Shown piece by piece: positions 1,919 to 39,937 of a stretch of 64,000 nucleotides of DNA. Position numbers and translations under genes: made by a program. The stretch is from Escherichia phage vB_Eco_OMNI12: sequence record OL362041.1; one strand, 5' to 3'. Below the pieces are notes generated by a model, which was not told where the DNA came from, did no database searches, and saw nothing but the letters and a program-made list of their open reading frames with translations. How positions within the stretch are numbered: the stretch's first letter is position 1; each line of letters begins with the position of its first letter.

Positions 1919-2773
1919 TCACAATGAAGAAAATTCTTTAACTAAAGCCTGTAATGAAGCCTCTATTGGATATCCATTCTTAACTAACATTTTCCTAAAC
2001 ATTACATGTTTAGGACGATTATATGATATCCACAATTCATACAATTTATCTTTATTATCCCAATGATAGCCTTTTCGTCGAGATGCTATATGAGCTTTTC
2101 TAATCTCCGGATTTTTCCAACTAGCAGCTACTGAATTTGATATAGCTATTTTATATTCAGGTTTTGATAAAGCAGCACGAACAGCCTTTTGGTGTTTAAT
2201 TTTATTTTCTTCGTTATTAAACCATTCCCTTGAAGCCATTGAAATTTTTTGTTTTGTTTTAAAATTATTTAATCTTTCTTTATTATCTTTCCTATTTTTT
2301 GCTACTGAAAAATATTTTAATGCCCTTTCTCTAGCAGCATTTCTATTTTGCGGATTTGAATAATACTGTTGAAGCCTTTTTGATATTGTGTCACTTACAT
2401 CTTGTTTTATAAAACTATATTCAGCAGCTATTAAATCAACTTCGGCTAAAGATAAATTTTTATATGTTTTTCCTGACATCATTCTGTTTAAAGCATTTAA
2501 CATTTTTCCATTTTTACCTTTTGCTAATAAGAAGTGTGCTTTAAAATGATTAAAATGACTTAAATTAACTAAATTCCATGTAGATTTTAAATATTCAGGA
2601 AATATTGATTTAGGAAGCACGTGGTGTGCTTCCGTTTTACCTGGAGTTTTAACAGTTGAATTCACAGAAATAAAATTAATGTAAGACTTGGCGTCTTCTT
2701 CACTCAACGCTAATTTTTCAACTAATTCCTTTATTAAAAATTCATCATTAATGTCAAGTTTAAAATTCTTCAC
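1919..2773 (-). CDS. freestanding HNH homing endonuclease (mob-like)
   Basis: 284 aa; motif KTEAHHVLPKSIFPEY...NLVNLSHFNH; repeated basic C-terminal modules; paralog of ORF 10417-11256. Confidence 0.7.
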   Translation of the reverse strand: MKNFKLDINDEFLIKELVEKLALSEEDAKSYINFISVNSTVKTPGKTEAHHVLPKSIFPEYLKSTWNLVNLSHFNHFKAHFLLAKGKNGKMLNALNRMMSGKTYKNLSLAEVDLIAAEYSFIKQDVSDTISKRLQQYYSNPQNRNAARERALKYFSVAKNRKDNKERLNNFKTKQKISMASREWFNNEENKIKHQKAVRAALSKPEYKIAISNSVAASWKNPEIRKAHIASRRKGYHWDNKDKLYELWISYNRPKHVMFRKMLVKNGYPIEASLQALVKEFSSL

Positions 2774-9625: not shown

Positions 9626-9841
9626 TTAAGCCTTTTTATCAAGAACAGAATTCAGCTTGTTAGTAATTTTATCCAGACGCTCATTGAACTCGCTAGAAGA
9701 TAAACCCTTTTCTGGAGAAATCAAACTAATCACGAAAAATATAGCAATAAAAGGAATAAGGAAAATAGCTCCAACTGCCATAAACAGAAAGAATGTTACA
9801 GTTGTAAGAAAATCAGCTAAACCTTTACGAAATTTATACAT
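9626..9841 (-). CDS. small membrane protein
   Basis: 71 aa; single long hydrophobic helix. Confidence 0.45.
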   Translation of the reverse strand: MYKFRKGLADFLTTVTFFLFMAVGAIFLIPFIAIFFVISLISPEKGLSSSEFNERLDKITNKLNSVLDKKA

Positions 9842-9956
9842 ATTTTACCCTTAATTGATTAACCAAGCATTGATAAGCACTAAACTATACTGTGAATAAA
9901 ATTCTGGACCAAAATGAAAAATCATATCATTTATAGTATCCATAATGTAATTCAAT

Positions 9957-10427
9957 TTAATCATGTTTCCACACCCCATCGGTATTTGACCAAAGCCGCT
10001 GATTATCTGATCCTCTCCACAGCTTTTTGGTCGGAAGATTTTTCTCATACTTCCCATCAATAATAACATCAACATATTTAAGCATTTCTAGTTGTTTAAT
10101 ATCTTCAAACTTATATCCTGTCCACAACCAAATGCTTTTATTTGGATAAAGATTTTTTACTGTTTGAACAATGCAATGAATAACATCTCGATTATCAGGA
10201 TAGAGAGGGTCTCCTCCAGTTATAGTTAATCCTTCTATATAATCATTATTCAAACATTCAATTAATTGTTCTAGTGTTTCACCAGTGAATGGAATACCAT
10301 TTCTAGCATTCCATGTTGATTTATTATAACACCCTTCGCATTTATGCAAACAACCTGTAACGAAAAGAACGGTCCTGCATCCAGGACCATTCACAAAGCA
10401 GCACGGGTATATTCTGTCATAATTCAT
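9957..10427 (-). CDS. nrdG: anaerobic ribonucleotide reductase activating protein NrdG (radical SAM)
   Basis: 156 aa; radical-SAM Cys cluster CLHKCEGC. Confidence 0.85.
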   Translation of the reverse strand: MNYDRIYPCCFVNGPGCRTVLFVTGCLHKCEGCYNKSTWNARNGIPFTGETLEQLIECLNNDYIEGLTITGGDPLYPDNRDVIHCIVQTVKNLYPNKSIWLWTGYKFEDIKQLEMLKYVDVIIDGKYEKNLPTKKLWRGSDNQRLWSNTDGVWKHD

Positions 10428-11256
10428 TTATATATTTCCAATTATAGCCTTCAACACTTTTACGTTCGCCATTTAAACATTTTAAAATATTTCCTTTGCT
10501 AGAAATATTAAAATATTTTGCTGCGTCTGGTATATAATTAAATGTTTTTAAAAGAACACCATCTTTATATGCGCCAAATAAATTAAGAGTATATTTTTCT
10601 CGAAGACGCTGATGTTTCCTTTTCATAACCTCAGGATTTGCATACGCCAACCTCAATGAATTTCTATGTTTTTCTTTTACTTCAGGTTTTTGCATTGCTA
10701 ACTTAGTTAGCCTGGAAATTTTATTTCTAACTTCGTCAGTTTTCATTGCATTTGACAAATTTAATAAAGTTTTATTTCTAACTTCAGGTTTTTGCATTGC
10801 TAACTTAGTTAGTTCTCTATGTCTTTTTCTAAAATCGTCATCCTTCCATATATTTTTCGATAATTTTGACATAGAGCGGTGAAATAATTCCTTTTCACTG
10901 GAATACAATTTAAAAATTTCATCCAATTCATCCGCATTAAATCTATCGGTATTCGAGTTTATCATTCTATGAAAGGCATAACACATTTTACTATTGCTTG
11001 TTTTAGCTAAATAGTAATGAGCTAACGCATGGTCATAATATGACAAATTAACAATATTCCATTTATCTGTTTTATATTCAGGAAATATAGATTTGGGAAG
11101 CACGTGATGTGCTTCCGTTTTTCCTTTTATTTTAGGATTATTATAATTTTTTGTTATCAAATCAACATATGACAATAGTAAATCATTATTTTCTTCAAAT
11201 ATTAAAGCTAATTTATCATTCACAAAATCGCAAGGATAAAATCTATCATAATTCAT
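10417..11256 (-). CDS. freestanding HNH homing endonuclease (mob-like) between nrdD and nrdG
   Basis: 279 aa; KTEAHHVLPKSIFPEY...NLSYYDHALAH; overlaps both flanking genes; internal tandem repeat. Confidence 0.7.
   Translation of the reverse strand: MNYDRFYPCDFVNDKLALIFEENNDLLLSYVDLITKNYNNPKIKGKTEAHHVLPKSIFPEYKTDKWNIVNLSYYDHALAHYYLAKTSNSKMCYAFHRMINSNTDRFNADELDEIFKLYSSEKELFHRSMSKLSKNIWKDDDFRKRHRELTKLAMQKPEVRNKTLLNLSNAMKTDEVRNKISRLTKLAMQKPEVKEKHRNSLRLAYANPEVMKRKHQRLREKYTLNLFGAYKDGVLLKTFNYIPDAAKYFNISSKGNILKCLNGERKSVEGYNWKYINEL
10681..10812. repeat. tandem duplication inside HNH endonuclease gene
   Basis: Identical 30-mer ttcaggtttttgcattgctaacttagttag at 10681-10710 and 10783-10812 (period 102 bp); encodes repeated LTKLAMQKPEV modules. 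Confidence 0.8.
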
Positions 11257-13070
11257 TGGTGTTTAACCCTATGCATGATTTCTTTATTTTTACCGAGATT
11301 AAATCCGCGTTCGTTCGGATTTCCCAAATAACCACATGTTCTTCTTATTGTATTCATCTTTTTAGGATCAGTTTCTCCACAAATAGAACAAACAAATCCG
11401 TTTTCAGTAGGAGTCATTTCATGGGTACTTCCACACGTAAAACATTTATCTACCGGCATGTTAACACCAAAATAATCTAAATGTTGTGCAGCATAATCCC
11501 ATACGGCCTCAAGACCTTTCAAGTTATTTTTCATATCAGGAAGTTCAACATAAGAAATGTGACCACCTGTCGCAATGAAATGATATGGCGCTTCACGAGA
11601 AATCTTTTCAAACGGAGTAATATTTTCTTCTACTGAGACATGGAAACTGTTAGTGTACCAGCCTTTATCGGTAACATCTTTTACGCTTCCATATTTTTCT
11701 GTATCGAGTTTACAGAAGCGATAACAAAGGTTTTCAGCAGGAGTCGAATATAAACTAAAAGCAAATCCGGTTCTTTCAGTCCACTGTTTAAGATGAGCAT
11801 TCATTTTAGTTAAAATTTCTCGTCCAATATCACGACCGACAAGAATATTCAATTCGTGAATACCAATGTATCCTAAAGACACTGAACTTCTACCGTTTTT
11901 AAATAACTCAATTATATCGTCATCAGGTTTAAGACGAACCCCAAATGCACCTTCTTGGTAAAGAATAGGAGCAACAGTAGCTTTAACTCCTTTTAAGGAA
12001 CTAATTCTACACATCAAAGCTTCAAAACATAAATCCATTCGTTCATTGAACAATTCAACAAATTTCTGTTCATTGAACTGTGTTCCAATATAAGAATCTA
12101 ACGCGATGCGAGGAAGATTCAGTGTTACAACACCAAGATTATTACGTCCATCAAGAATTTCATTACCAGTCGAATCTTTCCATACGCCCAAGAAACTACG
12201 GCAACCCATTGGAGAAACAGGAACAGATGAACCAGTGATAGCTTTATTGTTCTTAGCTGAAATAATATCAGGATACATCCTTTTGCTTGCACACTCTAGA
12301 GCAAGCTGCTTAATATCATAGTTCGGATCGTCTTTATAAAGATTAACACCTTCTTCAACGAACATAACAAGCTTAGGGAAAATAGGAGTTATTCCATCAC
12401 GACCAAGACCTTTAATACGATTTTTCAGAATTGCTTTCTGAATCATTCGTTCAGTCCAGTCAGTTCCTGTACCAAATGTAATTGTTACAAAAGGTGTTTG
12501 TCCGTTTGAACTAAAGAGAGTATTTACTTCATATTCATAAGCTTGGAATGCATCGTATACATCTTTTTCTGTTTTAGATTGAGCATAATTCAACACATCA
12601 GCGATTTGCCATTTTTCTGCATCCTCAATATGTTTTGCATAGGTGCGTTTAACATAAGGAGAAAGTACTTTATCGACATTAGCAAATGTAGTTCCGCCAT
12701 ATTGGTGAGAAGCAACCTGTGCAGTAATTTGTGCCATAATTGCAGTAGCAACGCCAATTGATTTAGGAGTTTCAATCTGTGCATTACCAAGCTTAAATCC
12801 GTTCTCAAGCATTCCTTTTAAATCTACTAAACAGCAATTAGTAAATGGAAGAGCAGGGGAATAATCAATATCATGGAAATGAATAATTCCGCTTTCATGC
12901 GCTTTCATAATAAAAGACGGGACCATATTTTTGGCAATGTGTTTAGACACAATACCAGCCATAAGGTCCCGTTGAGTTGGAAAAACACGAGAATCTTTAT
13001 TAGCATTCTCGTTTAAAAGGTCTTTATTAGTTTTATGAATCAATCCTTCAATTTCTTTTTCAATTGTCAT
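11253..13070 (-). CDS. nrdD: anaerobic ribonucleoside-triphosphate reductase NrdD (class III), intronless
   Basis: 605 aa uninterrupted; C-terminal glycyl-radical motif RRTCGYLG. Confidence 0.9.
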   Translation of the reverse strand: MTIEKEIEGLIHKTNKDLLNENANKDSRVFPTQRDLMAGIVSKHIAKNMVPSFIMKAHESGIIHFHDIDYSPALPFTNCCLVDLKGMLENGFKLGNAQIETPKSIGVATAIMAQITAQVASHQYGGTTFANVDKVLSPYVKRTYAKHIEDAEKWQIADVLNYAQSKTEKDVYDAFQAYEYEVNTLFSSNGQTPFVTITFGTGTDWTERMIQKAILKNRIKGLGRDGITPIFPKLVMFVEEGVNLYKDDPNYDIKQLALECASKRMYPDIISAKNNKAITGSSVPVSPMGCRSFLGVWKDSTGNEILDGRNNLGVVTLNLPRIALDSYIGTQFNEQKFVELFNERMDLCFEALMCRISSLKGVKATVAPILYQEGAFGVRLKPDDDIIELFKNGRSSVSLGYIGIHELNILVGRDIGREILTKMNAHLKQWTERTGFAFSLYSTPAENLCYRFCKLDTEKYGSVKDVTDKGWYTNSFHVSVEENITPFEKISREAPYHFIATGGHISYVELPDMKNNLKGLEAVWDYAAQHLDYFGVNMPVDKCFTCGSTHEMTPTENGFVCSICGETDPKKMNTIRRTCGYLGNPNERGFNLGKNKEIMHRVKHQ

Positions 13071-13540
13071 TTTAAACTCTTTCTAAGCTGCTTCTTAAAT
13101 GAAGCTATTAACTGTGTTTTGGTGTCAGATTCATTATATTCAAATCCTCTTTGAAGCATCTCGGCCATCATTTCCTCTTTTCCTAAACGAGAAAATTCCT
13201 TTGATTTATCTCCAACAAAGTTAGGGTGAATATTATTTTGGGTGTAATCGGATTTTAAATAAGTAAGTAAATTTTCTAACCATTCAAGATAATCAACACC
13301 TTGTCCCTTTAAGCCAGAACGATTAAATTTATGCTTCATTTGACCTTCTGCGGCATTGCAGAGATTACAAAGCAATCCACGTATCTTTCCTGCTTTTGGT
13401 CCATTTAATTCATGGTCATGATCAAGATGATTAGCTTGAACATCAGGATTTAGTTCTCGTTGGCAAATTAAACATTTACCGTTTTGTGCATCATAAAATT
13501 TCTGTTTTTCTTCTTTATATAATTTGCCAGTCAATAACAT
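13067..13540 (-). CDS. 49: endonuclease VII (Holliday junction resolvase) gp49
   Basis: 157 aa; Zn-binding cysteines and HLDHDH motif; length equals T4 endo VII. Confidence 0.85.
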   Translation of the reverse strand: MLLTGKLYKEEKQKFYDAQNGKCLICQRELNPDVQANHLDHDHELNGPKAGKIRGLLCNLCNAAEGQMKHKFNRSGLKGQGVDYLEWLENLLTYLKSDYTQNNIHPNFVGDKSKEFSRLGKEEMMAEMLQRGFEYNESDTKTQLIASFKKQLRKSLK

Positions 13541-38581: not shown

Positions 38582-38655
<74 letters not shown>

Positions 38656-38658
38656 TAA

Positions 38659-39324
38659 TTAAAATTTCATTTTTCGACCTTTAAACCATCCTTCTGGAAT
38701 TGGGTCAGTTTTCTTAATACGTTTAGAAACTTTTTCATCTAATGAATGAATCCACATCATACCAAATTGGGAATTCTTTTCACCTTGTTGGTGTTTATTT
38801 TTGGCGTGAGATTCTTTCATTTTATTAATAGTTTCAAGAGTATGGGTCTTACCCAAGAAAGATTTAATATTTAAAAATTTCTCTCTATACTTAGGATTAT
38901 CCCAAAGCTGTTTAAACCTTTCTGAACCCATTTTACGATATTTTTCTTTAAGGTCTGGGTCGTTCTCAAATCTGGTTTTAAAAGCAGCAGCCCCTTTTAA
39001 GGAAGCTTCTTTCTTTTTATCCAAATATTCTTTAGTGTTTAAATGGTCCCAACCACCTTCACCACCTAATTTCAAATTATAAACATCAGGGCGCTTTAAA
39101 AACTCTTCAGTCACAATATTCTTTTCTGACTCAAACATAGAGGTTTTATCGTCAAAGAACTCTAATATTTCTTTAGAGAAATTTTCTATACCATACTTGT
39201 CTTGGGCTCTTTTTAATAATTTACCAGAACCCATATATCCATCATCTAAATTTTCGGTAGAATGAGCGCCTATATAGATTTTATTATTAATTTTATTTGT
39301 TATTTTATAAGTGTAATGGAACAT
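38659..39324 (-). CDS. segB: GIY-YIG homing endonuclease SegB
   Basis: 221 aa; GIY-YIG motif YKITNKINNKIYIGAHS; sits inside tRNA cluster as in T4. Confidence 0.8.
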   Translation of the reverse strand: MFHYTYKITNKINNKIYIGAHSTENLDDGYMGSGKLLKRAQDKYGIENFSKEILEFFDDKTSMFESEKNIVTEEFLKRPDVYNLKLGGEGGWDHLNTKEYLDKKKEASLKGAAAFKTRFENDPDLKEKYRKMGSERFKQLWDNPKYREKFLNIKSFLGKTHTLETINKMKESHAKNKHQQGEKNSQFGMMWIHSLDEKVSKRIKKTDPIPEGWFKGRKMKF

Positions 39325-39365
39325 AAATATCTCCTATTTCTAAGAGTATTTATGTTCCCAAAATA

Positions 39366-39437
39366 TGGCCCTGGGTGGAATTGAACCACCATCTGGCGAT
39401 TATGAGTCGCTTGCTTGAACCTTCCAGCTACAGGGCC
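39366..39437 (-). tRNA. tRNA-Ile (anticodon CAU, lysidine-type)
   Basis: 72 nt; anticodon loop CU-CAU-AA; T-arm GGUGGUUCAAUUCCACC. Confidence 0.8.
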
Positions 39438-39443
39438 TTGATA

Positions 39444-39516
39444 TGCTGATTGACGGAATCGAACCGCCGACATCCTCATTACAAGTGAGGTGCTCTACCT
39501 ACTGAGCTAAATCAGC
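39444..39516 (-). tRNA. tRNA-Thr (anticodon UGU)
   Basis: 73 nt; D-arm GCUCAGUAGGUAGAGC; anticodon loop CU-UGU-AA. Confidence 0.85.
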
Positions 39517-39523
39517 GAAATTA

Positions 39524-39610
39524 CGGAGGCGATAGGATTTGAACCTATGAGTCACCGGAGCGACTGCCGGTTTTCAAGACCGGTGCATTAAACCACTCTG
39601 CCACGCCTCC
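39524..39610 (-). tRNA. tRNA-Ser (anticodon UGA)
   Basis: 87 nt with long variable arm; anticodon loop CU-UGA-AA. Confidence 0.85.
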
Positions 39611-39612
39611 AG

Positions 39613-39686
39613 TCTCCGCGGCAGGATTTGAACCTGCGACATTCTGCTCCCAAAGCAGACGCTCTACCAAACTGAGCTACACGGAG
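39613..39686 (-). tRNA. tRNA-Pro (anticodon UGG)
   Basis: 74 nt; anticodon stem UCUGC/GCAGA, loop UU-UGG-GA. Confidence 0.85.
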
Positions 39687-39698
39687 TAAATTAAATTT

Positions 39699-39770
<72 letters not shown>

Positions 39771-39776
39771 AAACTT

Positions 39777-39863
39777 TGGTACGAGAAGTGGGACTCGAAC
39801 CCACAAGGAAATCATTCCGCAGCATTTTAAGTGCTGTGCCTTTACCAATTTGACCATTCTCGC
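39777..39863 (-). tRNA. tRNA-Leu (anticodon UAA)
   Basis: 87 nt with long variable arm; anticodon loop CU-UAA-AA; CCA encoded. Confidence 0.85.
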
Positions 39864-39864
39864 G

Positions 39865-39937
39865 CTGGGAATAAAGGACTCGAACCTTTGCATCTAGCAG
39901 TCAAAGTGCTATGCCTTACCAACTTGGCTAATTCCCA
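39865..39937 (-). tRNA. tRNA-Gln (anticodon UUG)
   Basis: 73 nt; anticodon loop CU-UUG-AC; 1-nt spacer to tRNA-Leu. Confidence 0.85.

Follow-up and report, generated by a model that had tools for sequence, protein, structure and literature searches.

Most descriptions place free-standing homing endonuclease genes between other genes; how such genes are expressed with no signals of their own, and how they spare their own genome from cleavage, has been clarified for individual cases. T4 MobE, the product of a promoterless Mob HNH gene that is coupled to an upstream nrd gene, nicks the 5' region of the downstream nrdB, and polymorphisms of the carrier have been proposed to spare its own genome (PMC2790892). 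Free-standing endonuclease genes also occur inside host coding sequence, as with MobA and the gene 60 bypass cassette and with the Aeh1 mobE that splits nrdA (discussed in bioRxiv 10.1101/2022.08.31.505936). At the junction of nrdD and nrdG, T4 carries mobC (MobC, NP_049689, 210 aa). Here we analyze a Mob-type gene at the same junction in a 64,000-nt segment of the Tequatrovirus (T4-like) genome of Escherichia phage vB_Eco_OMNI12 (OL362041.1), which we call the window. We consider it probable that this is a free-standing Mob HNH homing-endonuclease gene that travels on a discrete 829-bp cassette within nrdG and would home without any splicing. The gene, its family and its locus are already known and annotated; the insertion layout is apparently undescribed.

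The gene order of the window is that of T4 (46, 46.1, 46.2, 47, a-gt, 55, nrdH, nrdG, nrdD, 49), and across positions 9900-11700 the identity is 99.2% to Escherichia phage AndreasVesalius and 98.8% to Yersinia phage PST. The features at the junction are the following:

9957-10427, minus strand: nrdG, radical-SAM activase gene (156 aa, intact, full-length Pfam activase match)
10388-10427, minus strand: cassette-borne replacement of nrdG nt 1-40, encoding MNYDRIYPCCFVN; 8 of the 40 nt differ from the resident sequence
10388-11216, minus strand: inserted cassette, 829 bp relative to empty-site phages, made up of the endonuclease body and the re-coded nrdG 5' end
10417-11256, minus strand: Mob-family HNH homing-endonuclease gene (279 aa; named 'mobC' in phage PST)
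11217-11256, minus strand: nrdG 5' end of the resident gene, captured as nt 1-40 of the endonuclease open reading frame (13 codons plus 1 nt)
11253-13070, minus strand: nrdD, gene for the large subunit of the anaerobic ribonucleotide reductase (605 aa plus stop in a single frame; full-length PF13597 match, 5.6e-171)

That the endonuclease gene lies within nrdG became apparent from comparison with phages that have an empty site. The same region spans 1801 nt in the window and 972 nt in the empty-site records listed, a difference of 829 nt, and 829 nt is also the spacing of an imperfect direct repeat of 41 nt (10388-10428 versus 11217-11257, 80% identity). Over its first 40 nt, the endonuclease open reading frame (ORF) exactly reproduces the nrdG start (nt 1-40) of empty-site Tequatroviruses (40/40 in CHD16UKE1 and four IMG/VR contigs). 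The nrdG start of the window encodes MNYDRIYPCCFVN (MNYDRIYPCC) in place of MNYDRFYPCDFVN, and from nt 61 onward the gene is 100% identical to an empty-site relative. As judged from these alignments, the endonuclease gene is a cassette inserted in frame after nrdG nt 40 that uses the resident nrdG start, and the re-coded 40-nt copy is what restores a complete nrdG. Since the ORF begins with the resident start, it inherits the nrdG ATG together with the ATGA overlap with the upstream gene: the nrdD end (...CACCAATGA) holds the endonuclease ATG within ATGA, an overlap of 4 nt with the nrdD stop. At the other border the endonuclease end (...AATGAATTATGA) contains the nrdG ATG, which is found 8 nt ahead of the endonuclease stop, and the endonuclease TGA lies 11 nt inside nrdG. 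The initial annotation had an ORF at 10417-11256 that overlaps both nrdD and nrdG, and these coordinates hold, with overlaps of 4 nt and 11 nt. It had also described the gene as sitting between its two neighbors; the overlaps with both stand, but the position has to be amended to one inside nrdG, after nt 40.

Directly 3' of the insertion point, nrdG carries a terminator-like hairpin (GGTCCTG-GATG-CAGGACC followed by a T-run; window 10367-10392, minus strand). Compared with the empty allele the window carrier has GGC changed to GGT and GTC to ACC (V19T), and the pairing is improved. A conserved RNA or DNA hairpin with compensatory changes at the insertion point was rejected as a candidate because two carriers, phage PST and the Logan sequence L010, break the pairing.

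The cassette was found in 21 of 824 matching phage records at 96-99% identity, labelled as mobC or homing endonuclease. A homologous gene (85.7% amino acid identity) lies at the corresponding point of nrdG in 10 records of Klebsiella Jiaodavirus phages, and the empty-site Jiaodavirus records examined are without 826 bp. In the Jiaodavirus carriers the upstream copy is the Jiaodavirus-specific nrdG start (MNFDRIYPSD...), which agrees with empty-site nrdG at 40/40 nt in K65PH164 and 39/40 nt in KP13MC5-5, and the downstream copy again encodes MNYDRIYPCCFVN. Downstream of about nt 60, carriers in either genus show the nrdG sequence of their own empty-site relatives, and between the genera this gene differs by about 31%. 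Between Tequatrovirus and Jiaodavirus the 40-nt patch shows 0 nonsynonymous and 6 synonymous differences. In Klebsiella phage UTI-K1 the endonuclease (L006, 2377-3213) is annotated as 'ribonucleotide reductase activating protein', a label that is possibly due to the borrowed NrdG N-terminus. A 77-aa ORF overlaps the nrdD 3' end and the nrdG start in Jiaodavirus phages with or without the endonuclease (L004, L006, L007 and L008).

A second gene in the window has a comparable start:

1919-2773, minus strand: paralogous Mob-type gene (284 aa), between gene 46 and 46.1/46.2/47

The initial annotation had named this gene as a paralogous endonuclease, and rightly so: it shares 36% identity over 233 aa with the nrdG-locus endonuclease (E 5e-30), which is closer to it than to T4 MobC. 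Its nt 1-18 (2756-2773) are the resident GTG start of gene 46, GTGAAGAATTTTAAACTT, 18/18 identical to the insert-free T4 and PST, and its cassette (1886-2755, 870 bp) ends with a new ATG start for gene 46, ATGAAATCATTTAAACTT (MKSFKL...). To judge by this comparison, the paralogue repeats the start-capture layout on gene 46, and 71 of the 559 matching phage records carry this cassette. In T4-type mobC, too, roughly 20 nt of the start come from the local nrdG, giving MNY in T4 and MNF in Jiaodavirus Shark_ER15. A 5' capture was not seen in T4 mobB and mobD, nor in two distant metagenomic homologues, and capture is therefore a feature of the nrdG- and gene 46-locus cassettes and not of the whole family.

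The re-coded nrdG start is found with other nucleases, too. A tblastn search with the 'PCC' NrdG N-terminus returned 39 exact matches, nearly all of them with an endonuclease-type or unnamed gene under the match; companions of the patch are the PST-type gene in Jiaodavirus and SegH in RB3, PP01, F2, EC121 and others. The PP01 nrdG matches window 10388-10427 at every one of its first 40 nt and is of the empty-site type again from nt 41. The segH cassette of this phage (L021, 620-1600) re-codes the last ~10 nrdD codons and carries the identical 40-nt nrdG patch. The one apparent exception inspected, PD112 (L022, 1200-1600), turned out to hold an internally deleted segH remnant of 87 aa, with the patch retained save one silent G-to-A change. 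As far as these alignments reach, the right-hand border and the patch are common to three different nuclease genes. The nrdG of T4 (L002, 14447-14917) is chimeric, with nt 1-300 Jiaodavirus-like (up to 30/30 per 30-nt block) and nt 301-471 Tequatrovirus-like, and the tract next to mobC looks like an inter-genus co-conversion tract. The T4-type mobC is 99.3% identical in the Klebsiella Jiaodavirus Shark_ER15 (L009).

Compared with the described systems, the window gene has much in common with T4 MobC as far as the locus is concerned. Both sit at the nrdD/nrdG junction with overlaps of 4 nt and 11 nt, both contain an HNH core and a C-terminal ...GY.WKY..EL* that reads through the nrdG ATG, and both have borrowed their start from nrdG. 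However, the proteins share 38% identity over a 60-aa core only, out of the 279 aa of the window protein; in MobC the helices at the N-terminus and most helical repeat units are missing, its nrdG junction is at about nt 20 compared with nt 40 in the window, and the best T4 match to the window protein is MobD. Megablast with T4 mobC retrieves 32 records, none below 99% identity, and these T4-type genes stand apart from the window gene. We therefore reject orthology to T4 mobC: locus and junctions agree, but the similarity is confined to 60 of 279 aa and the T4-type genes are a set of their own. On sequence grounds the name 'mobC' in the PST record is positional and the window gene represents a second Mob lineage at this junction. 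SegH, a GIY-YIG enzyme, shares the locus, the right border and, in PP01, the complete patch with the window gene, but belongs to an unrelated nuclease family, re-codes the end of nrdD and is not fused to the nrdG start. T4 mobE differs from the window gene in that it lies between nrdA and nrdB and its product nicks nrdB at nt 122-126, and no capture or duplication of the downstream gene start has been described for it. For MobA with gene 60 and for Aeh1 mobE, accompanying sequence keeps the host gene working, as in the window. In these cases, however, the host gene is split or needs translational bypass, while nrdG of the window is kept in one piece. I-HmuI (1u3e) resembles the window protein, as modelled, in its N-terminal HNH region, helical linkers and C-terminal helix-turn-helix, but is intron-encoded, and its HNH region has no detectable sequence similarity to that of the window protein.

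The domains of the 279-aa protein are these:

11005-11124, minus strand: HNH (beta-beta-alpha-metal) core, aa 45-84, from family alignments and model
10582-10836, minus strand: about five helical repeat units of 17 aa (51 nt), aa 141-225, NUMOD3-like via alignment with relatives
10781-10812, minus strand: 32-nt exact repeat, copy in unit 1 (LTKLAMQKPEV)
10679-10710, minus strand: 32-nt exact repeat, copy in unit 3 (LTKLAMQKPEV)
10420-10581, minus strand: predicted C-terminal beta-hairpin and helix-turn-helix DNA-binding domain of I-HmuI/NUMOD1 type, aa 226-279, ending in GYNWKY

The HNH assignment could not be made with Pfam on the protein alone and took a family alignment, a profile search and a structure prediction. 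The protein matches PHROG 655 'homing endonuclease' (5.7e-37) and phrog_12434 'HNH endonuclease' (4.7e-15), and an exhaustive HMMER search collected 2352 relatives. The two family alignments, of 50 and 67 sequences, show no variation at H50, H51, H76 and H80 and almost none at N67; P54 does not vary in the larger one and hardly varies in the smaller. Among the aligned relatives, Pfam recognizes HNH in 9 of 50, NUMOD3 in 15 of 50 and an I-HmuI NUMOD-like domain in 16 of 50; NUMOD1 is also present. The family profile matches the I-HmuI DNA-binding domain (1u3e) with E 2.3e-6 and, weakly, the HNH domains of Cas8f-HNH and McrA (E ~0.02) and also a group II intron maturase. In the AlphaFold2 model (pLDDT 90, above 95 in the HNH region) a beta-beta-alpha fold at aa 47-84, with strands 47-51 and 68-72 and helix 73-84, is followed by a long run of helices and then by the C-terminal beta-hairpin and helix-turn-helix.

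Comparison with T4 MobA-E gave matches in sequence to MobD (tblastn, 32% identity, E 9e-8) and MobC (BLASTP, E 1e-7), and a Foldseek search against viral models gave structural ones to a MobD-like protein (6e-13), T4 MobB (1e-8) and T4 MobC (7e-8), with T2 endonucleases also among the best. A phmmer search against PDB sequences returned nothing meaningful. The HNH homing-endonuclease type proposed in the initial annotation is borne out by this membership in the T4 Mob family, and an inactive gene with mutated HNH residues, which it had named as the alternative, is not what we see: the His-His, Asn, His and His positions of the motif are intact in the family alignments. On alignments and model together we regard the assignment to the T4 Mob-family HNH proteins as secure. 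With the Klebsiella-phage counterpart as reference, the whole gene has a pN/pS of 0.13; the HNH core (0.083) and the C-terminal domain (0.04) lie lower still, and these values argue for strong purifying selection on the endonuclease. The G+C content of the gene is 27.6%, that of the whole window 34.8%.

An exact tandem repeat of 30 bp with a period of 102 bp had been noted in this gene before. The spacing of 102 nt is correct, but the exact repeat is 32 nt long (10679-10710 = 10781-10812) and the array is not just a tandem duplication of 102 bp: the period given by Tandem Repeats Finder is 51 nt (2.7 copies, 66% match), and the two copies of the exact repeat fall into units 1 and 3 of the roughly five helical units, in line with the earlier view that duplicated DNA-binding-like modules are encoded here. 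In 200 shuffles of the endonuclease gene the longest exact repeat was 15 nt. Both copies in Roth77 share two lineage-specific silent changes, which hints at conversion between them. Three metagenome-derived sequences (P0002, P0265, P0270; 245 aa) have an exact deletion of 102 bp (34 aa) between the 32-nt repeats, and one such variant was verified at the nrdD/nrdG locus. In L010 (Logan ERR2241743, 975-1703) the 102-bp deletion is combined with a 2-bp AT insertion, which places the stop directly ahead of the nrdG ATG. Two of the sequences are Logan contigs, in which assembly at k=31 may have collapsed the 32-nt repeat; the remaining one was taken from an ENA assembly. In-frame, repeat-mediated deletions in the DNA-binding domains of endonucleases have been described in ICP1 phages (PMC10448857). 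The ongoing change of target specificity that the initial annotation read from the repeat is only weakly supported: all 31 near-full-length copies in phage records are constant at 278-279 aa, and the deletion variants are not known to affect specificity.

How might such a cassette move? We infer homing activity, target and immunity by analogy, and the target is proposed to be in the nrdG 5' region because T4 MobE nicks the 5' region of nrdB. In a mixed infection the enzyme would bind via its C-terminal helix-turn-helix and the 17-aa helical repeats and would nick or cut cassette-free nrdG near nt 40, in the stretch that encodes the conserved FVNGPGCR segment. Recombinational repair would then copy the cassette from the donor, with homology arms that abut the break, namely nrdD plus native nrdG 1-40 on the left and nrdG from nt 41 onward on the right. 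This geometry would be that of intron homing, with a duplicated and re-coded 'exon 1' standing in for splicing. In the carrier, neither junction (native left arm with endonuclease body; re-coded patch with native right arm) would equal the intact site, and the broken target might confer partial or full self-immunity. Re-coding could also lower deletion by recombination between the two 40-nt copies. Tentatively, and with less conviction than we have in the cassette itself, we propose that the nrdD/nrdG junction follows a splicing-free 'pseudo-intron' design, in which a portable patch repairs nrdG, breaks the target and serves as a common module for exchanged nucleases (two Mob lineages and SegH), and which might be reusable, as at gene 46.

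Several observations weigh against homing by this gene. Pfam HNH (PF01844) and NUMOD3 (PF07460) gave no match to the endonuclease itself at E<=1, I-HmuI_NUMOD-like and NUMOD1 scored below their cut-offs (21.1 against 27 and 17.3 against 22.8), and the Foldseek search of the full-length model against the PDB was non-significant, with 1u3e as top match at E 0.21. The element is rare, at about 2.5% of matching records, and the synonymous divergence of the endonuclease gene between the two genera is high (pS 0.53). In phage BF15 (MW822007.1, protein P0282) the protein is called from an internal GTG past the His-His pair and has 228 aa; this copy may be frameshifted and decaying, because the DNA match comprises 1801 record bases for 1800 query bases. 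For T4 MobC the activity is given as 'ND' and the target as unknown (PMC2988022). It might be, then, that the gene is a decaying or domesticated remnant that does not home and is kept since its deletion harms nrdG expression or since the phage uses it otherwise, in competition or exclusion. A related protein with no demonstrated activity and the low frequency of the cassette would both fit, as would shortened or re-called variants such as the BF15 protein and E. coli-derived copies of 268 aa, and the segH remnant in PD112 is a case of decay at the same site. We nevertheless hold a remnant to be improbable. Selection has preserved the protein, with the catalytic core and the DNA-binding domain most constrained, all motif residues are intact, and a cassette with the same precise borders in two genera with so different nrdG genes argues for transfer by homing. 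A footprint of loss, with nrdD joined directly to a patch-type nrdG, was not found in IMG/VR, where there were 4 matching empty sites and no occupied ones, a base too small to give this negative much weight.

Immunity through the patch is a separate matter, and here the objections are more specific. At the downstream junction of the Jiaodavirus carriers, identity with the empty site already begins 10 nt ahead of the insertion point, and immunity would need to depend on bases upstream of that. SegH reportedly cuts its own genome too, and the patch that it shares may accordingly not protect the carrier. A simpler reading of the patch than immunity is that it represents hitch-hiking DNA, co-converted between the endonuclease gene and a cut at or beyond nt 40, and that carriers are perhaps cut as well. 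The identical patch next to the unrelated segH in PP01, the near-identical MNYDRIYPCC patches with the PST-type gene in Jiaodavirus and with T4-type mobC in Shark_ER15, and the ~300-nt Jiaodavirus-like tract in T4 nrdG next to mobC, typical of co-conversion, are all in line with hitch-hiking. Yet a patch identical to the resident sequence would have served nrdG equally well, while in fact 8 of 40 nt differ, mostly silently, and the constancy of the patch peptide across genera points to selection that acts on the DNA itself or against homology between the repeats. We therefore consider hitch-hiking a serious though rather unlikely account; it is compatible with immunity, and the two are not mutually exclusive. 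A chance or family resemblance of the endonuclease N-terminus to NrdG, with no capture at all, is very improbable. T4 MobB (MNYLNIY) and MobD (MNYTKVY) do begin in a similar way without copying their downstream genes, and distant homologues lack capture, but the 40/40 identity to empty-site nrdG, the switch to MNFDRIYPSD in Klebsiella phages, the insertion length that exactly equals the repeat spacing and the copy of the unusual GTG start of gene 46 speak for capture. For the window gene the local-sequence switch and the gene 46 copy refute chance resemblance, which is relevant only to the short junction of the T4-type mobC.

If homing via a captured start is the correct reading, the cassette offers one lineage a sequence-level answer to the problems of expression and self-cleavage: the start of the victim gene is used and a re-coded spare is carried along. 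The layout predicts the target, nrdG around nt 40. In comparative genomics the 'PCC' patch at the nrdG 5' end marks past or present occupancy by an endonuclease, and for annotation the borrowed N-terminus matters as it may mislabel an endonuclease as NrdG activase, as in the UTI-K1 copy. Otherwise this is an ordinary, annotated class of selfish gene. No description of start-codon capture with a re-coded patch, or of its sharing with segH, was found in the searched literature, which did not cover the key SegH paper of 2005.

The nrdD gene upstream of the cassette was stated to be an uninterrupted frame of 606 codons without an intron, which agrees with the 605 aa plus stop, the full-length PF13597 match and the lack of an Rfam intron match. 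No group I intron was detected by Rfam in the whole window at the gathering score or in 9800-13300 at E<=10. In phage PST, nrdD contains an intron of ~1033 nt with I-TevII at a site corresponding to window 12533/12534; the window is continuous there, and its nrdD aligns colinearly with the spliced PST exons. An intron-encoded endonuclease in nrdD, as in the I-TevII arrangement, was rejected as no group I intron core interrupts the gene. The suggestion that the endonuclease is present instead of the nrdD intron did not survive: in T4 and PST the I-TevII intron of nrdD coexists with a mob gene at the junction, and because of this the two elements are independent. An intronless nrdD is unremarkable; it is also found in CHD16UKE1, the sole empty-site relative inspected closely for the intron. 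The only Rfam matches in the whole window are eight tRNAs, and the cluster of eight tRNA genes at 38582-39937 (minus strand) resembles the tRNA region of T4.

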